Shown: positions 2,406 through 32,455, counted from the first letter of the stretch. The stretch: 33,887 nt of DNA from an uncultured virus (IMG/VR IMGVR_UViG_3300023198_000928) (IMGVR_UViG_3300023198_000928), one strand, 5' to 3'. Numbers and translations: made by a program. Notes: generated from the sequence alone by a model not told the origin.

Positions 2406-4109
2406 ATGTCTTCTATAAAAATTAAAGGTGGGATATTATATAAGAAAATGCAGATTGGAGGATCCATTTCTTTAAATAATAAAATTGGAAAAGAATTTAC
2501 TCGTAATTGGTTAAATAGTCCAATAACACAGGAAAAATATGCTGATAATCTTAGAGAAATGAGTACTGGAACTACAGAAAAATTCGAAAACCCATTACTT
2601 AAATCCAATTATTTGCCCTCTAGTTTAAATAGAGATAAATATCAACGCAAAGCTCAGGCAAATTTACTAAGTGGAGTACAAAATATAAATAAATCTAAAG
2701 TCAGAGTTCTTCCTCAACAACAAGGTCCTACGGCAGAATATACACCTTTTAACAAAACTGTAAATTATTATAGAGAAAATCCTACCGCAGGCACTGCTAC
2801 TCATGAATATACCCATGTAGGTAGTGATATAGGTAAGGAAAAAGGTATTGACAGACAATTAACAGAATATGTGATAGATAAATTTGGATTTAGTAGGGCC
2901 ATACGAGAAAAACATCCTACTGCTCCAACTACTCGAGAAGCTGTAAAAAAAGAATTTAATGTTAATGGTAATTTATTTCTTAATGACAAAATGAGAAATA
3001 TTGAGTATAAAACTCAAAAAGGTGAATTATATCCTAGATTTATGGAGATGAGACAATTTTTAAATGTTCAGCCAGGACAACCTATTGATGACATAATGAT
3101 TGACAAACTAATGAATAACAAGAAAACAGGAAGTACTGCTAGATTCTATACAAAAGAAAAACTTAAAAATATATTAAATACTATTGCATTTAACGATGCT
3201 CAATCTAATATGGGTAACACAAGAACTGCAGCTGCAGGAGGAATATTATATAAGAAAATGCAGTCAGGAGGCCCTGTAGTAGAACCTTTAGTACAAGAAG
3301 CTGCCAAAGATAAGATAGGGAATGTTAACTTTAATACTCCTGATTTATACCAAATTCCCACACCCACACCTCATATGAACCCCGAGCCTTCGGCTCCTTC
3401 TGACTTTAGTAATCTACAACGACTAAATAAGGCTATTGGTGGAGGTGTTGATTTTGGAAAAGTAATGGGATTTTTCGGGCAATTAGCTGAGGCTGAGAGC
3501 TTTGGAGGGAAGGAGTTAACGAATCCAAAAAGCAGTGCTCAAGGATACTTCCATTTCTTAATCGATAACGGTGGTGGATATAATAAAGCCGGTTCTAAGA
3601 TATATGGAGGAAACTATGACTCTAAAGGAAAGATAGCTAATTCTAGTTTTGGCTCAGCTAAACAGAGGATAAGAAATCTAAAAGATACTGCATATGCTCA
3701 AGCAATAGATAGGGATCCTCAATTGAAAGCTACTCTAGATAAAATATCCTCTACTAATAATATAAATGACTTAAATCCTGAAGAACAAGCAATGCTTGCA
3801 TATGTAAGTCTGAAGATGAAGAGTAATACTTTTAGTGACTTTTTAAGGGATGAAGAAACTGCTGAAAATGTATATATAAAAGATTGGGTTACATTGTCAG
3901 GGAAACATACTAAAAAGGGAATAAATAAAAATTGGAGAGACGCAGCAATTAGACGACAGCCGGGAGGAGAGGCATTCAACTTAGTAACCAGAGGTACATT
4001 AGATGAAGCTCTATTTGGTATAAAGTCATATAGATTAGGAGGTAAACCGCTTCCATCGCCTGCTACTGAATTTATAAATAAAATAAAAGAAGCTAATAGG
4101 TTAGTATAA
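2406..4109 (+). CDS. Putative virion protein: zincin metallopeptidase-like domain plus lysozyme/lytic transglycosylase-like domain
   Basis: THEYTH (HExxH) with downstream GELYPR; AEAESFGG...NPKSSAQGYFHF resembles the SLT ES...SSA.G.FQF motif; GGILYKKMQ.GG precedes each domain. Confidence 0.65.
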   Translation: MSSIKIKGGILYKKMQIGGSISLNNKIGKEFTRNWLNSPITQEKYADNLREMSTGTTEKFENPLLKSNYLPSSLNRDKYQRKAQANLLSGVQNINKSKVRVLPQQQGPTAEYTPFNKTVNYYRENPTAGTATHEYTHVGSDIGKEKGIDRQLTEYVIDKFGFSRAIREKHPTAPTTREAVKKEFNVNGNLFLNDKMRNIEYKTQKGELYPRFMEMRQFLNVQPGQPIDDIMIDKLMNNKKTGSTARFYTKEKLKNILNTIAFNDAQSNMGNTRTAAAGGILYKKMQSGGPVVEPLVQEAAKDKIGNVNFNTPDLYQIPTPTPHMNPEPSAPSDFSNLQRLNKAIGGGVDFGKVMGFFGQLAEAESFGGKELTNPKSSAQGYFHFLIDNGGGYNKAGSKIYGGNYDSKGKIANSSFGSAKQRIRNLKDTAYAQAIDRDPQLKATLDKISSTNNINDLNPEEQAMLAYVSLKMKSNTFSDFLRDEETAENVYIKDWVTLSGKHTKKGINKNWRDAAIRRQPGGEAFNLVTRGTLDEALFGIKSYRLGGKPLPSPATEFINKIKEANRLV

Positions 4110-4119
4110 TAAAAATCAC

Positions 4120-4127
4120 TATATTTG
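4120..4127 (+). promoter_or_regulatory. Bacteroidota sigma70-type -7 element for tRNA block 1
   Basis: TATATTTG matches TANNTTTG, 30 nt upstream of leader ORF 1. Confidence 0.6.
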
Positions 4128-4157
4128 TGTAACGAATTTACGAATTATAATTTAACT

Positions 4158-4244
4158 ATGAACAATATACAACTGCATATCGAGCGCCAGGAACCGTTAC
4201 AAAGTAATGGAAGGATCTCTGTATGTGGAGTCGATGGTTTATAG
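4158..4244 (+). CDS. Attenuator leader peptide 1 (MNNIQLHIERQEPLQSNGRISVCGVDGL)
   Basis: Codons 5-15 (caa ctg cat atc gag cgc cag gaa ccg tta caa) match the downstream Pro, Glu, Gln, His, Leu, Leu and Arg tRNAs. GAAGGATC 4210-4217 is complementary to the terminator 5' arm. Confidence 0.8.
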   Translation: MNNIQLHIERQEPLQSNGRISVCGVDGL

Positions 4245-4271
4245 CCCTTGGTGTAACATAATTAAAAAGAT

Positions 4272-4302
4272 GATCCTTCTAAGAAATTAGAGGGATTTTT
4301 TT
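4272..4302 (+). terminator. Intrinsic terminator (attenuator 1) just before tRNA-Pro
   Basis: GATCCTTCTAA-gaaa-TTAGAGGGATT stem followed by a T-run. Confidence 0.85.
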
Positions 4303-4312
4303 ATATCAAATT

Positions 4313-4386
4313 CTAGGTGTAGCGTAGTCAGGTAACGCGCGTGCTTTGGGTGTACGAGAACGGGAGTTCGAATCTCTCCATCTAGA
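4313..4386 (+). tRNA. trnP: tRNA-Pro(TGG)
   Basis: Cloverleaf; acceptor ctaggtg/catctag, anticodon loop tttgggt, T-loop ttcgaat. Confidence 0.93.
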
Positions 4387-4441
4387 CAAAAGGTTTTAGC
4401 CCTTCCCCGTGTGAGTAATTGACACAAAATGAAGAGCATCT

Positions 4442-4514
4442 GGCGCGGTCTTCTAGTGGATCAGGAATCCGGGTTTTCATCCCGGCAACCGGAGTTCGAT
4501 TCTCCGTCGCGCTA
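4442..4514 (+). tRNA. trnE: tRNA-Glu(TTC)
   Basis: Acceptor ggcgcgg/tcgcgct; anticodon arm ccggg-ttttcat-cccgg. Confidence 0.93.
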
Positions 4515-4605
4515 CAAAATGGTCACTATAGTAGCTAATAGTCGGTAAAAATCCGATTAATAGCTACCAGAGTAGCTAACTATTCGTGATTCGCGAATTG
4601 GAAAT

Positions 4606-4677
4606 TGGGTCGAAGTGTTATGGATGTGCACATCGGTTTTTGGTACCGAAAGACAGGGTTCGATGCCCGCGGCCCAC
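4606..4677 (+). tRNA. trnQ: tRNA-Gln(TTG)
   Basis: Acceptor tgggtcg/cggccca; arm tcggt-ttttggt-accga; bulged T-stem. Confidence 0.85.
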
Positions 4678-4679
4678 CT

Positions 4680-4753
4680 GTGTATGAAGCTAAAGTGGCC
4701 GAAGCGTCGGTTTGTGGTACCGAAGATAGGGGGTTCGAGTCTCCTCATACACC
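4680..4753 (+). tRNA. trnH: tRNA-His(GTG), no encoded G-1
   Basis: Acceptor gtgtatg/catacac with C73; arm tcggt-ttgtggt-accga. Confidence 0.9.
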
Positions 4754-4758
4754 CAAAA

Positions 4759-4843
4759 GCAGTAGGGAGGAATTATACTAGTTGATATAGCCTCGCCGCC
4801 CCGTGGAGGGAGGAAAAGCTCAGACTTATCACTGAGATACTGC
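4759..4843 (+). ncRNA. Putative structured multibranch RNA between tRNAs
   Basis: Closing stem gcagta/tactgc encloses hairpins gagg..cctc and ctcag-acttatca-ctgag. Confidence 0.4.
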
Positions 4844-4848
4844 AAAAT

Positions 4849-4933
4849 GCTCCTATGGCGGAACTAGGTAGACGCTCTAGATTTAGGATCTAGTATCAGT
4901 AATGGTGTGAGAGTTCGATTCTCTCTGGGAGTA
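4849..4933 (+). tRNA. trnL: tRNA-Leu(TAG)
   Basis: Acceptor gctccta/tgggagt; arm ctaga-tttagga-tctag; long variable arm. Confidence 0.93.
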
Positions 4934-4938
4934 CAATA

Positions 4939-5037
4939 GTCAGGATAGACGTGCAGTGATGTATGGATTACGCCTAGTATAGATTAATTATCTATTGATG
5001 AGGGGATAGAAATGAGAGGTTCCCTTTAAGTCCTGGC
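4939..5037 (+). ncRNA. Putative structured RNA between tRNAs
   Basis: Closing stem gtcagga/tcctggc; internal atagat-taatt-atctat and agggga..ttccct helices. Confidence 0.35.
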
Positions 5038-5048
5038 GACGTTATAAT

Positions 5049-5134
5049 GCCTTCGTGATGGAACTGGTAGACATAGCGGACTTAAAATCCGTGGGTCAGG
5101 AATGGCCGTGAGGGTTCGACTCCCTTCTTAGGTA
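5049..5134 (+). tRNA. trnL: tRNA-Leu(TAA)
   Basis: Arm gcgga-cttaaaa-tccgt; long variable arm; two acceptor mismatches. Confidence 0.9.
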
Positions 5135-5142
5135 CTAAATAC

Positions 5143-5216
5143 GGCTTGCTAGCTTAACTGAACAAAGCACTTGATTACGGCTCATGAGATTCGGGGTTTG
5201 AATCCCTGGCAGGCTT
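5143..5216 (+). tRNA. trnR: tRNA-Arg(ACG)
   Basis: Acceptor ggcttgc/gcaggct; loop ttacggc; T-loop tttgaat. Confidence 0.88.
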
Positions 5217-5270
5217 CTGATTTTCACTATTTTAATAGTATTATATTAATATAATTTATACCTTTAAGAT

Positions 5271-5516
5271 ATGAAAGTAAACACAAGACTTATAGAAGTT
5301 ATCGCCACTGATAAGGTTGATGTGGCAGATATGAAAGATGTACCAATTGTAACCTTTGCGGACTACTGGTATCATAAAAACGATCTTGCTATCTCAGAAG
5401 ATGGCACTAACACGATTCTTATAGGATTCAATGTGGGTAAAAATACTAATTCCTTATTTTTAAAGGATAGAGATGTTAAAGCTGGAGAAAAGTACAGATT
5501 AAAATTAAAAGATTAG
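5271..5516 (+). CDS. Hypothetical protein
   Basis: 81-aa ORF in a gap between tRNAs, preceded by a GTATTATA motif. Confidence 0.6.
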   Translation: MKVNTRLIEVIATDKVDVADMKDVPIVTFADYWYHKNDLAISEDGTNTILIGFNVGKNTNSLFLKDRDVKAGEKYRLKLKD

Positions 5517-5537
5517 TATATATTAGAATAATTTTCA

Positions 5538-5545
5538 TATATTTG
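5538..5545 (+). promoter_or_regulatory. Bacteroidota sigma70-type -7 element for tRNA block 2
   Basis: TATATTTG(TGTA), same context as 4120 and also 30 nt upstream of its leader ORF. Confidence 0.6.
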
Positions 5546-5575
5546 TGTAGGTTTAATAAAACATTTTAGCATTCA

Positions 5576-5656
5576 GTGAATTTAAGTATAAATATAGCGA
5601 CAAGAATTATGGTCGGGACGGATAAGTCTCCGAAAGGATCTTGTTGGTATGGATAA
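5576..5656 (+). CDS. Attenuator leader peptide 2 (GTG start; MNLSINIATRIMVGTDKSPKGSCWYG)
   Basis: Codons 7-17 (ata gcg aca aga att atg gtc ggg acg gat aag) match the block 2 tRNAs. AAGGATCTT 5634-5642 is complementary to AAGATCCTT 5680-5688. Confidence 0.8.
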   Translation: MNLSINIATRIMVGTDKSPKGSCWYG

Positions 5657-5681
5657 GTAAATTCACATACAATATAATAAA

Positions 5682-5714
5682 GATCCTTCTAACTTCCATT
5701 TAGAGGGATTTTTT
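5682..5714 (+). terminator. Intrinsic terminator (attenuator 2) just before tRNA-Ala
   Basis: GATCCTTCTAA-cttccat-TTAGAGGGATT plus T-run; stem arms identical to attenuator 1. Confidence 0.85.
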
Positions 5715-5725
5715 AGTTAACAACC

Positions 5726-5798
5726 GGCCCTGAAGCTCTACTGGCTGAGCATCTCCCTTGCACGGAGAAGGTTGCGAGTTCGAGTCTCGTCAGGCCCA
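5726..5798 (+). tRNA. trnA: tRNA-Ala(TGC), C3:C70 in place of G3:U70
   Basis: Arm tctcc-cttgcac-ggaga; acceptor ggccctg/caggccc. Confidence 0.85.
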
Positions 5799-5884
5799 CA
5801 ATAATGATTAGAAGATTATGTATTTAAGTAAGAAGAAATATAAACAGTAATTAGCCCTTTGAGAAATGAGGGTGTTATTTATAT

Positions 5885-5956
5885 GCCTTCGTAGCTTAAT
5901 GGTAAAGCAACTGACTTTTAATCAGTAGACCAAGAGATCGGTACTCTTCGAAGGTA
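5885..5956 (+). tRNA. trnK: tRNA-Lys(TTT)
   Basis: Acceptor gccttcg/cgaaggt; arm actga-cttttaa-tcagt; atypical T-loop atcggta. Confidence 0.88.
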
Positions 5957-5982
5957 CAAAGAAAGATTGGGCTAAATAAAAT

Positions 5983-6054
5983 TGGGTTATAGCTCAGGGG
6001 TAGAGCAGCTGTCCGATACACAGCAGGTCATCAGTTCAAATCTGATTAATCCTA
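5983..6054 (+). tRNA. trnI: tRNA-Ile(GAT)
   Basis: Arm gctgt-ccgatac-acagc (C33); T-loop ttcaaat. Confidence 0.88.
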
Positions 6055-6065
6055 CAAAAGAAAAC

Positions 6066-6138
6066 GCAGGTATAGTGTTAGCGTGTAGCATGCGAGCCTT
6101 CCAAGCTCAGGGGGTCAGTTCGAATCTGGTTACCTGCA
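6066..6138 (+). tRNA. trnG: tRNA-Gly(TCC)
   Basis: Acceptor gcaggta/tacctgc; loop cttccaa. Confidence 0.9.
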
Positions 6139-6149
6139 CAAAATTAAAT

Positions 6150-6221
6150 AGTGACGTAGCTCAGTGGTAGAGCAGTCGGTTCATATCCTTCAGGTCACGG
6201 GTTCAAATCCCGTCGTCGCAA
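6150..6221 (+). tRNA. trnM: tRNA(CAT), probably elongator Met
   Basis: Loop ttcatat; weak anticodon stem gtcgg/ccttc; canonical D and T arms. Confidence 0.75.
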
Positions 6222-6233
6222 CAAAGAAAAAAT

Positions 6234-6306
6234 CGCGAGGTAGAGCAGGGGCCAGCTCGTTGGGCTCATAACCCAGAGGTCGGCGGTTCGAATCCGTCCC
6301 TCGCTA
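6234..6306 (+). tRNA. trnfM: Initiator tRNA-fMet(CAT)
   Basis: C1:U72 mismatch; three consecutive G-C pairs in ttggg-ctcataa-cccag. Confidence 0.92.
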
Positions 6307-6364
6307 CTACAAATAAAGATAAGTTCAGGGCTTTCCCCCAGCGCGGGTTTTAGATTGAACAAAC

Positions 6365-6440
6365 GGTGGCGCAGCATACATGGGAGCATGGCGTCTGCCT
6401 GTCACGCAGAAGATTGCGGGTTCGAGTCCCGTCGTTACCG
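6365..6440 (+). tRNA. trnD: tRNA-Asp(GTC)
   Basis: Acceptor ggtggcg/cgttacc with G73; arm tctgc-ctgtcac-gcaga; atypical D-arm. Confidence 0.88.
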
Positions 6441-6454
6441 CAAAGTTTAGGAGA

Positions 6455-6537
6455 TATCCTAGACAACTATTAGAGTAAGGAGACCACTGTCCTACAGGTA
6501 GTGATCGACGCAGCAGGACCTTAACTCTCTTAGGATA
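6455..6537 (+). ncRNA. Putative long-hairpin RNA between tRNAs
   Basis: Nested stems tatccta/taggata and agagtaagg/ccttaactct. Confidence 0.35.
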
Positions 6538-6538
6538 A

Positions 6539-6611
6539 TCCGGAATAGCTCAATCGGTAGAGCAGCTGTTTTGTAATCAGCAGGTCGTCAGTTCGAGCCT
6601 GACTTTCGGAT
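6539..6611 (+). tRNA. trnT: tRNA-Thr(TGT)
   Basis: Acceptor tccggaa/tttcgga; loop tttgtaa. Confidence 0.9.
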
Positions 6612-6712
6612 CAAATAGTACTTAGAACACCTCTCGTGAAGTCTTGAAGTGTCCCAATCTAAGTCTTTTACGAGGAGATAGGTTACACGTGGCCGGGAAA
6701 GTCTCCTCACTT

Positions 6713-6786
6713 GCAGTGGTAGCTCAGGGGTAAAGAGCATCTGTTTTACATGCAGAGGGTCGATGGTTCGAATCCATCTCACTGTA
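6713..6786 (+). tRNA. trnV: tRNA-Val(TAC)
   Basis: Acceptor gcagtgg/tcactgt; arm tctgt-tttacat-gcaga. Confidence 0.92.
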
Positions 6787-6797
6787 CAAATTTACCA

Positions 6798-6871
6798 GGG
6801 ACTGTAGCTCAACTGAACAGAGCAGCATGCTTCTATCTTGCCGGTTGGGGGTTTGAATCCCTTCAGTCTCT
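6798..6871 (+). tRNA. trnR: tRNA-Arg(TCT)
   Basis: Acceptor gggactg/cagtctc; loop cttctat; T-loop tttgaat. Confidence 0.88.
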
Positions 6872-6877
6872 CTAAAT

Positions 6878-6951
6878 CGTCCTATAGCTCAGTAGGTCAG
6901 AGCAGGTCACTCATAATGATCAGGCCCTCGGTTCGATCCCGAGTAGGACAA
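6878..6951 (+). tRNA. trnI: tRNA(CAT), probably Ile2 (lysidine type, reads ATA)
   Basis: Arm ggtca-ctcataa-tgatc with A73; third CAT tRNA in the block. Confidence 0.75.
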
Positions 6952-7028
6952 CTAAATAGTAGCTATCATCATTACTTTGTCATATAAATTTTGTATTATA
7001 TAGAAGTAACATTCAATTTAAATTATAT

Positions 7029-7376
7029 ATGATTTACTACAAGAAAACCAATCGACCAGATCCCCGCCACACTCGCACATCATTTCAATCATTCAAAACC
7101 GGAGGTAACATTCTTTTAGGAGTAAAGAAGATCCCTAGCAGTATGAAAGAAACTATTAGTCCTTACATTATTAAAAGTAGTAAGTATCACGGTAAAAATG
7201 GAATAATTACTGGGCTAAGAAAACCATTAAATATGGACTCTGATGCAAGGGGACTAGGATTCGGTGCGGACAAGGATGGATTTTTTGTACATACTCATAG
7301 AGCTCGTAGTAAATCTTATCCTACTCCGTTCAAAATTCCTAAGGATAAAATTAAATTTATAAAATCCACTGGATAA
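7029..7376 (+). CDS. Basic hypothetical protein with a GG motif
   Basis: 115 aa; FKTGGNILL motif; GTATTATA upstream. Confidence 0.65.
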   Translation: MIYYKKTNRPDPRHTRTSFQSFKTGGNILLGVKKIPSSMKETISPYIIKSSKYHGKNGIITGLRKPLNMDSDARGLGFGADKDGFFVHTHRARSKSYPTPFKIPKDKIKFIKSTG

Positions 7377-7424
7377 TTCAAATATTTTTGTATCTTTATT
7401 ACTTAATATTAAAGACCGATATAC

Positions 7425-7577
7425 ATGGATTTTATTTTTGGATTACTAATAGGAGCTGTACTTGGAGGATTAATTGGAATCTTAGTGTACAGAAACAACG
7501 AAGAAAAAGCGAGTAAAATAGCAGATAAAGTTGACGATGTCGTAGAGGATATTAAAGATATAGGAAAAAAAGAATAA
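7425..7577 (+). CDS. Small membrane-anchored protein (YtxH-like pattern)
   Basis: MDFIFGLLIGAVLGGLIGILVYRNNEEKASKIADKVDDVVEDIKDIGKKE; stop lies 2 nt before leader 3. Confidence 0.7.
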   Translation: MDFIFGLLIGAVLGGLIGILVYRNNEEKASKIADKVDDVVEDIKDIGKKE

Positions 7578-7579
7578 TC

Positions 7580-7654
7580 ATGAAAGCAATTTATTGTACA
7601 TATAATAGTTTTAATTTTTGGTCGAATCGTTCGAGCAAGACTTCTATTGTATGA
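7580..7654 (+). CDS. Attenuator leader peptide 3 (MKAIYCTYNSFNFWSNRSSKTSIV)
   Basis: Codons 5-16 (tat tgt aca tat aat agt ttt aat ttt tgg tcg aat) match the Tyr, Cys, Asn, Ser, Ser, Phe and Trp tRNAs. GCAAGACTTC 7635-7644 is complementary to GAAGTCTTGC 7692-7701. Confidence 0.82.
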   Translation: MKAIYCTYNSFNFWSNRSSKTSIV

Positions 7655-7691
7655 TGTAAATTGAAAAACATATACTAATACTTAACCTAAG

Positions 7692-7720
7692 GAAGTCTTG
7701 CAGAAATGTAGGACTTTTTT
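7692..7720 (+). terminator. Intrinsic terminator (attenuator 3) before tRNA-Tyr
   Basis: GAAGTCTTGCA-gaaa-TGTAGGACTTT followed by a T-run. Confidence 0.85.
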
Positions 7721-7737
7721 ATGGTCTATAATAATCT

Positions 7738-7804
7738 GGATTAGCGGTGGTAGGGGCCGAGTCTGTAAAACTCTAGCCGGAAGGTTCGAATCCTTTCTAG
7801 TCCA
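7738..7804 (+). tRNA. trnY: tRNA-Tyr(GTA), atypical (reduced D-arm, short variable region)
   Basis: Acceptor ggattag/ctagtcc; arm gagt-ctgtaaa-actc; T-arm gaagg-ttcgaat-ccttt. Confidence 0.7.
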
Positions 7805-7862
7805 CAAAGTAAACGTATAAGTATACAAAACTCGAAAAAAGTAAACGTATGGCTGTACAAAC

Positions 7863-7951
7863 GGAAGGTGAAGCAGTGGCATTGGAGCTGCGACTAGTCT
7901 TGAAAACTAGGGGTCATTAGGTTGGCTGGGGATCGGGTCCTCCTCCTTCTT
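7863..7951 (+). tRNA. trnS: tRNA-Ser(TGA)
   Basis: Arm ctagt-cttgaaa-actag; long variable arm; atypical T-loop atcgggt. Confidence 0.8.
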
Positions 7952-8022
7952 CGTAGACAATGAGTGTTCAATAGTTGGTAGCTATAGCAGGACTGGTAAT
8001 CCATGGCTCATTGTACTTGTGT

Positions 8023-8107
8023 AGAGAGTAAACTGGACAGGCGCGCCAGATGCGATTGCTAATCGTTATGAGGGTAATACCTTTCGGTTCGAGACCGATT
8101 CTCTCTT
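8023..8107 (+). tRNA. trnS: tRNA-Ser(GCT)
   Basis: Acceptor agagag/ctctct; arm gcga-ttgctaa-tcgt; variable arm present. Confidence 0.82.
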
Positions 8108-8226
8108 CTAAATGAAGTAATAAGTTTTGAGCCGAATAAATTAAGTAATCAGCTCATGAAAAGTGAGAATGCAGCTCAAAATGATATGATAATGAGCCGT
8201 ATATATTAGTTTAGTGAGCAGTAAAT

Positions 8227-8298
8227 GTCTTGGTAGCTCAGTGGTAGAGCGTTTGCCTGTTAAGCAAGTTGTCGTGAGTTCGAATCTCACCCTTGACT
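8227..8298 (+). tRNA. trnN: tRNA-Asn(GTT)
   Basis: Arm tttgc-ctgttaa-gcaag; canonical D and T arms. Confidence 0.9.
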
Positions 8299-8385
8299 CA
8301 ATAAATGTTAAAATGTAGTAGATTATTATAATTATGTGATATATTTTTAGTAATATTGTATATATAATTATTAAAATACTATATT

Positions 8386-8715
8386 ATGGATGACAAGAAA
8401 ACAGAAAAAGTATTAGTAGGAGTTAGAATAGGAACTAAAGTAGAAGAAGGAGATCCTAAAATGTCATATAGACAAAGTATTAAGGCCTTTGGAAGTTTAG
8501 GTAAAGAAGTTAAGATTAGTCCTAAAGCACATGTGGTGTTAAATAAAGCTGGTTACAATGTAAAATATTATGTTGACAGTGTTAGTGTGACTATTGGAAT
8601 TGGAAATGATCATTCAGCTAGATTAGTTATGAGTGTAGATGCGTGGAATGCGCTTAATGATGGAGAGAAAATTAATGTGACGACTGTTAAAGAATTTGAA
8701 AGAGATTTTAGATAA
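8386..8715 (+). CDS. Hypothetical protein
   Basis: 109-aa ORF inside the tRNA array. Confidence 0.7.
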   Translation: MDDKKTEKVLVGVRIGTKVEEGDPKMSYRQSIKAFGSLGKEVKISPKAHVVLNKAGYNVKYYVDSVSVTIGIGNDHSARLVMSVDAWNALNDGEKINVTTVKEFERDFR

Positions 8716-8727
8716 TAAATAAAGTAT

Positions 8728-8800
8728 GTGTCTGTGTCCGAGAGGCTAAGGTAGATGGTTGCAACCCTGAAGATCGCTGGTTCGAGTCCAGTCAGACATT
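8728..8800 (+). tRNA. trnC: tRNA-Cys(GCA), weak anticodon stem
   Basis: Acceptor gtgtctg/cagacat with U73; loop ttgcaac. Confidence 0.8.
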
Positions 8801-8886
8801 CAAATAGACATCCTTATTATAGAAAATGGGGATAAATGAAAATAAGAGTAATCGCTAATTAAGAAAAGAGGCGAAAACTTAAATAA

Positions 8887-8959
8887 GCTTCAGAGACCCT
8901 CTGGGAAGGGTAGCAGCCTCCAAAACTGCTAGTTGTGGGTTCGAATCCTACCTGTCGCG
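8887..8959 (+). tRNA. trnW: tRNA-Trp(CCA)
   Basis: Loop ctccaaa; G73; T-arm gtggg-ttcgaat-cctac. Confidence 0.85.
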
Positions 8960-9107
8960 CAACTATATGTAAATGCGTATAGCGAAAACGGTTCTATTGG
9001 GCTGCGGACGATTACTATACGTAATAGCATATAATGGGGTGTATGATATATCATGCTAAGAGGACCATATTAAAGCTCTTTGAATGAGATACTGTACATA
9101 ATTAATT

Positions 9108-9180
9108 GGGTTAGTAGCAAAGGCGGTCAATGCAGCGGACTGAAAATCCGTAGATGGTGGTTCGATTCCACTCTATCCCA
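9108..9180 (+). tRNA. trnF: tRNA-Phe(GAA)
   Basis: Acceptor gggttag/ctatccc; arm gcgga-ctgaaaa-tccgt. Confidence 0.92.
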
Positions 9181-9212
9181 CTAAAGTAGATTATTTTCAG
9201 TATCTTTATATT

Positions 9213-9362: not shown

Positions 9363-9671
9363 ATGAAGACGATTAGAAAAGTAGAACTTGAAAGAATTCA
9401 ATATCAGGACGAACTACCTGAACACGAGAAATTGGAAGAAAGAGTGCTTTATGTATCGAGAGAATATGACGTATCTAAACATAATTGTCTTTGCGGCTGC
9501 GGCGAATTGGTAGTACTCCCTTTCAATAATATCATAAATGGTGTAGACTACGGCTGGAAACTAATAGAGCACCCATCTGGTAAAATAACTATCACCCCAA
9601 GCGTCGGAAGTTTTTCTTTACCCTGCAAATCCCACTATATAATCACTAAGAACGTGGCTAATTTCGTATAG
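9363..9671 (+). CDS. DUF6527-like protein
   Basis: LYVS...H.CLCGCGE.VVLP...W.L...ITITPSVG...PCKSHYII pattern. Confidence 0.75.
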   Translation: MKTIRKVELERIQYQDELPEHEKLEERVLYVSREYDVSKHNCLCGCGELVVLPFNNIINGVDYGWKLIEHPSGKITITPSVGSFSLPCKSHYIITKNVANFV

Positions 9672-9931
9672 CTTCACTCCCCACTAAAGTACCCAAAAAA
9701 AAATAAATTTTATTGTAGCGACTTTGGACATTAAATTTTTGTCTGGTTGTAGGGAAATGAAAAGTTTGGAGAGGGACGGGCGTGCTGAACCCCTATACTC
9801 ATTTGGCCCCGACCCGAATTTCAGGGGAAACGTTTTTCGCTTCAATCGACGGGTAGGTCCATTCGTATATGCACTTCGTGAACCGGTGTAGGTCTCTCAC
9901 GATATCGCGATAGTCTTGCTCAACCTCCATC

Positions 9932-10032: not shown

Positions 10033-10356
10033 ATGAATATAAAAATTAATCAAATTAGTAAAGCGTTGACTAATGCTGCTACACACATTGAACTGTTATC
10101 ATTAACAAATGAACAACAACAACTCGTTGATGCAGTAGCTTCAAGTAATACTATAATGGCTGATGCTATAACTAAGCTAATGCAAGGGCATACGCAGTTC
10201 ATCAAACAACAACAGTTGATAATGGACATAGAGATAGCTAAGAAACAGAATTATAGTAAACTACAACGTAGAGTAACCTTCTATAAAAATAGAGGGTATA
10301 ATCACGGTGAAGCTTACACATTAGCTAAGAAATGGATTAACAATCTAAATAAATAG
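10033..10356 (+). CDS. Hypothetical helical protein
   Basis: 107-aa ORF with an A-rich start context. Confidence 0.7.
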   Translation: MNIKINQISKALTNAATHIELLSLTNEQQQLVDAVASSNTIMADAITKLMQGHTQFIKQQQLIMDIEIAKKQNYSKLQRRVTFYKNRGYNHGEAYTLAKKWINNLNK

Positions 10357-10358
10357 TT

Positions 10359-10475
10359 ATGAGTAAAAAAGTCAAATACGAAAGTGATAATGAGCATTGG
10401 CTAAGAGATGTAATTATAGCTATAATTATAATATTGGTCTTCGGGTATATTGCCTCAGGACCTCATACAAGATAA
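10359..10475 (+). CDS. Small membrane peptide
   Basis: 38 aa with VIIAIIIILVFGYIA; fits tightly between its neighbours. Confidence 0.55.
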   Translation: MSKKVKYESDNEHWLRDVIIAIIIILVFGYIASGPHTR

Positions 10476-25452: not shown

Positions 25453-26595
25453 ATGAAAGCAACAATAGTAATAGACCTTGGATACGGAGACAGTGGAAAA
25501 GGTATAGCAACAGATTATTTATGTGACCAAGCTAAGAACCCGGTAGTAGTAAGATTTTCGGGAGGTCAACAAGCAGGTCATACAGTAGTAAGAAATGGTA
25601 AGAAGCATACATTTTCAAACTTCGGATCAGGGACCTTTCAAGATGTACCCACATATTTTACAGAGCATACAACAGTTTATCCTAGTGCCATTGCAAGAGA
25701 GCAAGATAGATTAGCTGATTTAGGTGTTGAACCATTATTGGTAATTCATCCTTTAGCTAGATTAACAACTCCATATGATGTAATGCATAATAGAACGTGT
25801 ACTGATAACAAAGCACACGGCACTTGTGGAATGGGTGTTGGTAAAACTCACCATAGACATAATACTTCTGGATACAGACTCTATGCAGTGGACTTATTAT
25901 GTCCAGAGATATTACGGCAGAAGATGGAAAGAATTCGTGATGAATATTATGAAGCAGAATTTGGTGGAGATTTAGAATTAGATCTAATGTTGGAATTAGA
26001 AGAAGAGGAAAGAATATTTATGCAAGCTGTAAAAGGGCTTAAATGGATTATCAAAGGATATGAATTCTTAGAATGTTTTCACACTTTAGTATTCGAAGGT
26101 TCTCAAGGCGTTATGTTAGATAAAGATCACGGAGTATTTCCTCATGTGACATATTCTAATACTACATCTAAAGTTCCAATGGAGATCTGTGATAAATTAA
26201 ATATCTTAGATAGACAAGTATACCACGTTACTAGAGCATACTCTACAAAACACGGTTCCGGGCCTTATAATTCTTCAGGTAGACTAATTACTCTACAGAA
26301 TAATGATAAAGAGCATAATGTGACAAATAAATTTCAAGGAGAATTTTTAACCTCTCCCATGGATTATGAGATATTAAATCAAGCAATTCGCGTAGATGAA
26401 AGTTACACTAAAGGATACATGACTAATTTAATTGTTACATGTAATGACCAAATTGTTTTTCCTGAAAATGATTTTGATATTAACCAAGTAAATAAAAACT
26501 ATTATGAGGTTATGTATTCATATTCAGCTGAAACAATGGAATTAGTTGTAGCTAAAAAAGCAGTATTTAAACAGCGAGTTAACGCAGAAATTTAA
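25453..26595 (+). CDS. purA: Adenylosuccinate synthetase family protein (PurA-like, divergent)
   Basis: DLGYGDSGKG, RFSGGQQAGHT, HGTCGMGVG, FEGSQGVMLD, PHVTYSNT and TRAYSTKHGSGP motifs. Confidence 0.85.
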   Translation: MKATIVIDLGYGDSGKGIATDYLCDQAKNPVVVRFSGGQQAGHTVVRNGKKHTFSNFGSGTFQDVPTYFTEHTTVYPSAIAREQDRLADLGVEPLLVIHPLARLTTPYDVMHNRTCTDNKAHGTCGMGVGKTHHRHNTSGYRLYAVDLLCPEILRQKMERIRDEYYEAEFGGDLELDLMLELEEEERIFMQAVKGLKWIIKGYEFLECFHTLVFEGSQGVMLDKDHGVFPHVTYSNTTSKVPMEICDKLNILDRQVYHVTRAYSTKHGSGPYNSSGRLITLQNNDKEHNVTNKFQGEFLTSPMDYEILNQAIRVDESYTKGYMTNLIVTCNDQIVFPENDFDINQVNKNYYEVMYSYSAETMELVVAKKAVFKQRVNAEI

Positions 26596-32366: not shown

Positions 32367-32439
32367 GGCTTGATAGCTCAGTTGGTAGAGCAAAGGATTA
32401 AACGTCCGAGTGTCCTAGGTTCGATTCCTAGTCGAGCCA
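32367..32439 (+). tRNA. Orphan tRNA-Phe-like gene with aberrant anticodon arm (apparent AAA anticodon)
   Basis: Acceptor ggcttga/tcgagcc and canonical D/T arms; anticodon arm aagga-ttaaacg-tccga. Confidence 0.7.
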
Positions 32440-32455
32440 CTAAATAATATAAGTT

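Follow-up and report, generated by a model that had tools for sequence, protein, structure and literature searches.

The tRNA array and its upstream spacer

We analysed 33,887 nucleotides (nt) of DNA from an uncultured virus (IMG/VR IMGVR_UViG_3300023198_000928; this whole stretch is referred to as the window), focusing on attenuator 1 (positions 4158–4302), an element upstream of a cluster of transfer RNA (tRNA) genes that, as judged from sequence and fold modelling, is very probably a translation-coupled (trp-type, ribosome-mediated) transcription attenuator tuned to its own block of tRNA genes. The window, whose source contig measures 157,887 bp, is AT-rich (~30% G+C) and phage-like, and contains 25 tRNA genes clustered at 4313–9181. 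Attenuator 1 occupies the 203-nt spacer between a tail-protein-like open reading frame (ORF; 2406–4109 (+), family match phrog_24249, tail protein) and the tRNA-Pro gene that begins at 4313. This gene opens block 1 (4313–5217 (+)), which encodes tRNA-Pro(tgg), Glu(ttc), Gln(ttg), His(gtg), Leu(tag), Leu(taa) and Arg(acg). Two more blocks complete the array: block 2 (5726–6952 (+)), with tRNA-Ala, Lys, Ile(gat), Gly, three Met(cat), Asp, Thr, Val and Arg(tct), and block 3 (7734–9181 (+)), with tRNA-Tyr(gta), Ser(tga), Ser(gct), Asn, an interposed ORF (8386–8715), a Cys-like tRNA with a 6-nt anticodon loop, Trp and Phe(gaa); the Tyr gene was called by aragorn at a lowered threshold only. The host of the phage is probably a flavobacterium, given that the array is syntenic with those in phages of marine Flavobacteriia.

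The spacer holds a leader ORF of 28 codons (L1, 4158–4244 (+); MNNIQLHIERQEPLQSNGRISVCGVDGL), which runs from an ATG at 4158 to a TAG stop codon at 4242–4244, and an intrinsic terminator (4272–4302 (+)) composed of a hairpin at 4272–4297 (11 pairs, loop GAAA) and a run of seven T (4296–4302) that begins with the last two T of the hairpin. The hairpin was recovered independently by a pattern scan and ends 16 nt before tRNA-Pro. A protector (1:2) hairpin spans 4156–4243 (+), with the codon run described below on its 5′ strand and the antiterminator strand on its 3′ strand. The antiterminator pairs region 2 (4207–4226 (+), within leader codons 17–23) with region 3 (4256–4282 (+), ACATA at 4256–4260 plus the 5′ arm of the terminator); antiterminator helix and terminator share this arm and are mutually exclusive. 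A first-pass annotation of this DNA had proposed these three helices, and each was found where it had been placed: the eight-pair protector core (ctgcatat 4173–4180 with gtatgtgg 4221–4228, including three G–U pairs) and its inner hairpin (ccgttac 4194–4200 with gtaatgg 4204–4210), the antiterminator core (GAAGGATC at 4210–4217, the exact complement of GATCCTTC at 4272–4279) with its supporting pair (TATGT 4222–4226 with ACATA), and the terminator with its 11 pairs, 4-nt loop and T-run.

These structures are more stable than shuffled sequences would lead one to expect. The 203-nt intergenic region folds at −46.6 kcal/mol (z = −3.00; 1 of 200 shuffles folds as well), the protector hairpin alone (4153–4247) at −26.0 kcal/mol (z = −2.80; 1 of 200), and the terminator alone has z = −3.95 (0 of 200). 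The antiterminator duplex (4207–4220 with 4269–4282) reaches −15.8 kcal/mol, an energy attained by 1 of 1,000 shuffles of the upstream segment. For the region taken as a whole, the minimum-free-energy fold consists of the protector, including its inner hairpin, and the terminator.

Upstream of the leader, we identified a candidate promoter −7 box at 4120–4127 (+) (TATATTTG) that the first-pass annotation had overlooked. It is of the Bacteroidota sigma-A type TAnnTTTG, and the available part of a study of flavobacterial promoters gives this sequence as the −7 box, with a G at −5, and describes flavobacteria as having no Shine–Dalgarno (SD) sequences (PMC6847099). From the position of the box, transcription would start near 4132, leaving a 26-nt 5′ untranslated region before the ATG. 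L1 likewise has no SD sequence, as is true of the genes in the window, and carries an A at −3. An identical 12-mer, TATATTTGTGTA, occurs in units 1 and 2 (the latter upstream of block 2), in both cases 30 nt before the leader start codon; a convincing −33 element was sought for unit 1 and not identified. The short ORF thus lies on the same strand as the tRNA genes, between the box at 4120–4127 and the first gene at 4313, and because of this TAnnTTTG-type box unit 1 is a self-contained promoter–leader–terminator cassette.

Codon content of the three leaders

Codons 5–15 of L1 (4170–4202 (+); CAA CTG CAT ATC GAG CGC CAG GAA CCG TTA CAA, QLHIERQEPLQ) read as a checklist of block 1. Ten of the 11 codons are cognate to the seven tRNAs of the block, all of which are covered within nine codons. 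Coverage of all seven tRNAs in at most nine stop-free codons is reached at 1 of the 67,722 window positions (both strands, all frames), and this position is the L1 checklist. The first-pass annotation had tied the leader to tRNA supply through Gln, Leu, His, Glu, Arg and Pro codons, and this link proved much stronger than claimed, the run having a cognate codon for every one of the seven tRNAs.

Sister units precede the other two blocks. Unit A2 (5538–5714 (+)) has a −7 box at 5538–5545, a leader read from a GTG (5576–5656; MNLSINIATRIMVGTDKSPKGSCWYG, M written for GTG), a checklist at 5594–5626, an antiterminator strand at 5633–5643 and a terminator at 5680–5712 with a T-run to 5714. The nine distinct anticodons found in block 2 (Ala, Lys, Ile, Gly, Met, Asp, Thr, Val and Arg-tct) are all represented in its run IATRIMVGTDK, its protector has z = −6.51 and its terminator is nearly identical to that of unit 1. 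A start at ATG 5609 (MVGTDK...) had been considered and was replaced by the upstream in-frame GTG 5576, because the latter is the earliest start codon downstream of the predicted transcript start and makes the list complete. Unit A3 (7580–7720 (+)) comprises a leader ORF at 7580–7654 (MKAIYCTYNSFNFWSNRSSKTSIV) with a checklist at 7592–7636, an antiterminator strand at 7634–7646 and a terminator at 7692–7717 with a T-run to 7720. The leader covers all seven block 3 tRNAs (Tyr, two Ser, Asn, Cys-like, Trp and Phe), and its protector has z = −4.03. Both arms of the A3 antiterminator differ from those of A1 and A2 yet pair through compensating changes (GCAAGACUUC with GAAGUCUUGC; −18.5 kcal/mol, 0 of 1,000 shuffles).

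Each of the three checklists is the sole full-coverage position for its own block among ~67,700 window positions on both strands and in all frames. When every leader was scored against every block, the leaders covered 7/7, 9/9 and 7/7 anticodons of their own blocks; L1 covered 6/9 anticodons of block 2 and 3/7 of block 3, and all off-diagonal cells of this three-by-three comparison held between one and six anticodons. The initial letter of the codons read differs roughly from block to block: it is mostly C in block 1, which also reads GAR and UUR, A or G in block 2, and U in block 3, with AAY and AGY in addition. This partition is not kept in a related metagenome contig, L003, described below.

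The terminator lies 163 nt past the stop codon of the tail-protein ORF and a pattern scan detected no other terminator between the two, so that the element could be imagined as the ordinary terminator of the tail gene or as an insulator before the array, with the small ORF and the alternative pairings arising by chance in an AT-rich spacer; small ORFs are indeed common (93 of at least 20 amino acids in the first 9 kb of the window). Such an origin, already disfavoured by the statistics, is very improbable: the checklist is unique among the 67,722 positions, the window has three copies of the design and four other sequences carry it too, leader content tracking block content throughout, the antiterminator is kept through compensating changes, and a promoter box stands between the tail gene and the leader.

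A 50-amino-acid ORF at 7425–7577 (+) (phrog_3879), with a hydrophobic N-terminal stretch by eye, ends 2 nt 5′ of the start of leader 3. In the Maribacter phage Panino, a look-alike small protein (CDS0064, ~5218–5367) stands directly upstream of the second leader, and this small ORF is a conserved passenger gene within tRNA arrays.

Relatives and modelled response to stalling

The design was found in four further sequences: the Cellulophaga phages phi4:1 and Calle_1, Panino and the metagenome contig L003. In phi4:1 the tRNA order is as in the window and three leaders are of the checklist kind, and in Calle_1 the blocks are ordered 2, 3, 1, each preceded by the matching leader. Panino carries at least two checklist leaders, one of them annotated as hypothetical protein CDS0063. 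The strongest test of leader content following block content is L003, in which the tRNAs are sorted into different blocks and the leaders follow that sorting. Leader 1 of L003 (MNNTLYSRCLSLWFRPDPEMTML; shortened, MNNTLYSRCLSLWFR...) stands before Phe, Tyr, Ser, Trp, Cys, Ser, Leu, Arg, Arg and Leu, ten tRNAs that are matched by ten consecutive codons. In leader 2, codons 3–22 are all cognate to the 14-tRNA block behind it (Pro, Ala, Gly, Asp, Asn, Ile, Val, Ile, Lys, Met, Glu, Thr, Gln and His, where Asn rests on an Rfam tRNA match plus an anticodon loop read by eye). A full-coverage test of eight leaders showed that seven cover all distinct anticodons of their blocks, and the eighth covers 8/9. 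The match extends to isoacceptors: a CGN Arg codon is present in 5/5 leaders of blocks with Arg(acg), and AGA in those of blocks with Arg(tct). Where a block contains both isoacceptors, its leader has both Leu codon families in 5/5 cases, both Ser codon families in 4/4, and ATA plus ATY in 5/5. Anatomy, statistics, conservation and co-variation are all observed features of these sequences.

Searches around this set defined its extent. None of six tRNA blocks in control genomes (a crAss-like phage, a T4-like phage and a Bacillus phage) had a checklist leader; the best coverage of a control block was 7/9, equalled in 81 of 300 shuffles. A huge phage (LR745206.1), whose tRNA blocks are all small and comprise few isotypes, provided no information either way. 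The automatic screen relied on mononucleotide shuffles, which are a weak control for small blocks (116 of 300 for a four-tRNA block of Panino), and it missed window leader 3 and L003 leader 1 because weakly scoring tRNAs broke the block definition; both leaders rest on direct coverage counts. A search of the phage collection for close relatives of the window gave tRNA-level matches only, and scans of IMG/VR with the 567-amino-acid upstream protein, an exact 29-mer and terminator, leader-3 and tRNA-His patterns returned nothing or phi4:1 alone. A protein search with the 567-amino-acid ORF found seven distant relatives, at 36–42% identity over under half its length, and a single metagenome scan yielded one contig, L003. 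For Calle_1, the coordinates in the annotation table are ~52 nt below the aragorn and Rfam positions, and sequence coordinates were used.

In Calle_1 and Panino the promoter box lies only 4 nt upstream of the leader ATG; judging from these sequence positions, the leaders would therefore be leaderless mRNAs. Three existing gene calls look off: phi4:1 gp075 (7473–7592) corresponds to the second leader but was given a TTG start that falls within the promoter region, gp076 (9601–9702) overlaps tRNA-Ser(tga) (aragorn, 9596–9679), and Panino CDS0063 (4338–4433) is the first leader. The Cys-like tRNA of the window (8728–8801 (+)) scores 36.2 bits with Rfam and is drawn by aragorn with a 6-nt anticodon loop containing GCA; phi4:1 has a similar odd tRNA in the same place (10337–10411), annotated as a pseudo-tRNA. 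Cys codons are listed in both leaders, that of the window and that of phi4:1, beside this odd tRNA.

A sensor of amino-acid starvation, that is, of tRNA charging, or of general translation speed would use the leader as a growth-state or timing signal and not as a gauge of these particular tRNAs. Ribosomes read only aminoacyl-tRNA ternary complexes, so that low charging and low tRNA cannot be told apart at the codon, and the first codons of L1 (including Asn and Ile) fall outside the block and nonetheless within the effective window. For a sensor of either kind there would be no point in naming precisely the isoacceptors encoded downstream, or in altering that list where the blocks are sorted differently; moreover, extra tRNA does not relieve an amino-acid shortage, and the output would not fit the input. 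We give this explanation a slim chance.

The secondary-structure elements of attenuator 1 recur throughout the 13 leaders of the set. Each has an intrinsic terminator (hairpin plus U-run; −11.9 to −20.1 kcal/mol) that begins 20–50 nt past the leader stop codon and in 12/13 ends 6–20 nt before the first tRNA. In all 13, the last third of the ORF also contains an antiterminator strand, with duplexes of −9.4 to −18.5 kcal/mol; the numbers of shuffles per 1,000 that reach the observed energy are 1, 24, 0, 38, 169, 8, 61, 45, 59, 8, 7, 4 and 11 (at most 61 in 12/13). The helix sequences differ among the 13 leaders and still pair, indicating that the pairing is kept by compensating changes. The stop codon lies 6–14 nt from segment 2 in 9/13.

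To model stalling, we placed the ribosome codon by codon and folded only the RNA ahead of it. This procedure replaced an earlier one that masked a 29-nt ribosome footprint and in which the unit 1 antiterminator forms when the checklist is masked; the earlier model allowed pairs across the ribosome, which is physically implausible. With the ribosome on the Gln, Leu, His, Glu, Arg and Pro codons of L1, the modelled fold is the antiterminator named by the first-pass annotation, and without it the full-length minimum-energy structure of each of the window's three leaders is the protector plus the terminator. Across the leaders, the 5′ arm of the terminator is predicted to be sequestered at every A-site position as far as the checklist end, and this sequestration is lost ~1–4 codons past the checklist in 10/13, so that in most leaders the list would end where a stalled ribosome begins to cover the antiterminator strand. 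In the other three (window L1, phi4:1 leader 3 and L003 leader 1) sequestration persists or returns further down the ORF. The protector appears to be the least general part of the model and is not uniformly predicted, because the free nascent leader leaves the terminator arm unpaired in only 6/13.

The codon-matched leader could instead be real with an output other than stall-controlled termination, for example a translation-dependent effect on how the tRNA precursor is processed or how stable it is, protection from Rho, or a switch that works in the opposite direction. In the energy model the free leader prefers the antiterminator in 7/13, so the default could be read-through, and single regulatory codons are unusual for attenuators. 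We regard such an output as unlikely: a canonical hairpin and U-run are present in 13/13, ending 6–20 nt before the first tRNA in all except one, a competing helix uses the terminator 5′ arm in 13/13, and the placement of the checklist end at the onset of antiterminator occlusion in 10/13 is something that neither an opposite-sign nor a processing model needs.

A structured RNA that binds tRNA or protein directly, in the manner of a T-box or riboswitch and with an incidental ORF, would account for the high structure of the leaders (z = −2.8 to −6.5) and for a position typical of riboswitches. It is hardly credible here. No Rfam family was matched at gathering score, the best sub-threshold score being 26.8 bits against a cut-off of 60, and what is conserved between leaders is the reading frame and codon content, whereas the sequence outside the helices is not. 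Over the whole window, neither the T-box nor leader families of Rfam (Trp_leader, His_leader, Leu_leader, Thr_leader and similar) gave a gathering-score match, and at E up to 1 the region 4050–7800 gave only chance sub-threshold hits to unrelated small RNAs.

Other genes of the window lie outside the array. A 380-amino-acid adenylosuccinate-synthetase-like protein is encoded at 25453–26595 (+) (Pfam PF00709, 6.8e-42; best PHROG phrog_1211, '2-aminooxy adenylosuccinate synthetase', 1.6e-54); it is a PurZ-type enzyme, and the phage DNA may therefore have adenine replaced by 2-aminoadenine. A lone tRNA-Phe with anticodon AAA (32367–32440 (+)) lies far from the array and has no checklist-type leader; an unmodified A34 in such a tRNA is unusual. 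Divergent from the tail gene and the tRNA region are genes for a T5orf172/MUG113-domain protein (3–692 (−)) and for a protein with two winged-helix DNA-binding domains (701–1534 (−)).

Proposed mechanism and biological meaning

Translation of the leader ORF, ribosome stalling on it, the direction of the switch and its physiological trigger are what we infer from these data. Under the proposed attenuation mechanism, transcription would start at the Bacteroidota-type promoter near 4132, and a ribosome would translate the 28-codon leader as RNA polymerase approaches the terminator. Codons 5–15 would test the supply of the seven downstream tRNAs (Pro, Glu, Gln, His, two Leu and Arg-acg). If any listed aminoacyl-tRNA is scarce, the ribosome would stall on the 5′ strand of the protector and free 4207–4226 to pair with 4256–4282, which would sequester the 5′ arm of the terminator and let the polymerase enter the tRNA block. 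With all seven in good supply, the ribosome would reach the stop codon, the protector would re-form behind it and the terminator at 4272–4297 would fold, such that transcription would end 16 nt before tRNA-Pro. The product of the block would in this way feed back negatively on its own synthesis. The sister units would act likewise on the other two blocks, the three leaders together covering the whole array isoacceptor by isoacceptor, and the switch would also respond to the loss of host tRNAs during infection.

Several observations weigh against this mechanism or limit it. The first concerns specificity: the L1 checklist contains one foreign codon (Ile ATC, codon 8), and the first four codons of L1 (M N N I) fall within the window in which a stall would free the antiterminator, so block specificity is not absolute. 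One Calle_1 leader has an Arg codon of the wrong family (AGA), the sole exception in the isoacceptor comparison, and the start of L2 is an assumed GTG. The Tyr tRNA of L003 and the Ala tRNA of Calle_1 rest on reading by eye plus an odd low-threshold aragorn call, and Rfam at gathering score reported neither. The five arrays share ancestry and are not five independent inventions. Classical attenuators have tandem regulatory codons, whereas these leaders have only one or two codons per tRNA, and by this comparison a mild shortage may give little stalling. The folding predictions also contain discrepancies: the antiterminator of phi4:1 leader 2 is weak (169 of 1,000 shuffles), the minimum-energy fold of the free nascent leader pairs the terminator arm upstream in 7/13, and with the A site at codons 19–22 of L1, 8–6 of the 11 terminator-arm bases pair upstream again. 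In unit A1, 24 nt separate the end of the antiterminator strand from the stop codon. A ribosome that has reached the stop codon would leave the strand uncovered, so that termination would then need the protector to re-form, which is a kinetic assumption.

The closest known systems are the multivalent attenuators of enterobacteria, in which the ilvGMEDA leader contains Leu, Val and Ile codons and the thr leader contains Thr and Ile codons. As in these, a short leader ORF lies between promoter and genes, codons for several amino acids lie on the 5′ strand of a 1:2 hairpin, and an antiterminator and an intrinsic terminator exclude each other; in the enterobacterial systems a stalled ribosome selects the antiterminator, as it would in our model. 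Known multivalent leaders have codon runs for 1–3 amino acids, whereas the phage leaders would sense 7 to 14 tRNAs, mostly through 1–2 codons each and resolved by isoacceptor. They also differ in being phage-encoded, in occurring once per tRNA block, in having a Bacteroidota-type promoter and no SD sequence, and in that the genes under control encode tRNAs and not biosynthetic enzymes, making the effector the direct gene product. With Escherichia coli trpL they share the four-segment logic (1:2, 2:3 and 3:4), a small number of regulatory codons (two Trp codons in trpL) and, in some sister leaders, a stop codon near segment 2; unit A1 differs from trpL in that its stop codon lies 24 nt past segment 2 and in that its target is a tRNA block. 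Like a T-box, the phage unit would report the state of specific tRNAs through a terminator/antiterminator switch. T-boxes bind uncharged tRNA directly without translation, read one tRNA each and control genes for aminoacyl-tRNA synthetases and amino-acid functions, whereas the phage leaders would need translation and would read many tRNAs at once.

To our knowledge, the genes regulated by all described leader-peptide attenuators serve amino-acid biosynthesis, transport or aminoacyl-tRNA synthetase functions; unit 1 departs from this scope, as its regulated genes are seven tRNA genes. We likewise know of no classical attenuator that equals the multiplexing of up to 14 tRNAs per leader. The novelty of these units would lie in bringing leader-peptide attenuation to phage tRNA arrays by means of a codon checklist resolved by isoacceptor. 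On balance, and with some reserve, we favour the view that these units form an undescribed class, in which the leader peptides of marine flavobacterial phages name every tRNA of a block by isoacceptor and the block is switched on only when one of them runs short. In the likely host lineage, the accessible part of a study of Flavobacterium psychrophilum reports clues to leader-peptide attenuation upstream of amino-acid operons, and its Table S7 gives 64 structured 5′ regions (PMC9723704). As far as that part describes them, these signals represent the same kind of mechanism and differ from the phage units in being host-encoded and located at amino-acid biosynthesis operons; their presence makes translation–termination coupling plausible in flavobacteria. 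Our literature search (subscription-only papers and supplements were outside its scope) found no published account of leader-peptide, attenuation or terminator control of tRNA arrays, tRNA operons or phage tRNAs, and in the available portions of the papers on Calle (PMC8776804), Panino (PMC11590407) and phage-tRNA defence (PMC10264068), 'leader' and 'attenuat' are never tied to tRNA genes.

The cultured carriers—phi4:1 (on Cellulophaga baltica), Calle_1 (Cellulophaga sp.) and Panino (Maribacter halichondriae)—make the idea directly testable. The leaders provide a ready annotation rule, several of them being currently filed as hypothetical proteins (Panino CDS0063 and the phi4:1 gp075 region), and could serve as tRNA-specific reporters. 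If the mechanism holds, the reach of attenuation would widen beyond amino-acid operons to include non-coding genes under direct feedback from their product, and the units may let the virus sense tRNA depletion, be it from codon mismatch with the host, from decay of host tRNAs during infection or from host anticodon-nuclease defences. Why and when phages use their tRNA arrays has been debated for decades; on this mechanism, the phage would treat tRNA supply as a regulated variable, with each block switched on by slow decoding of its own codons.

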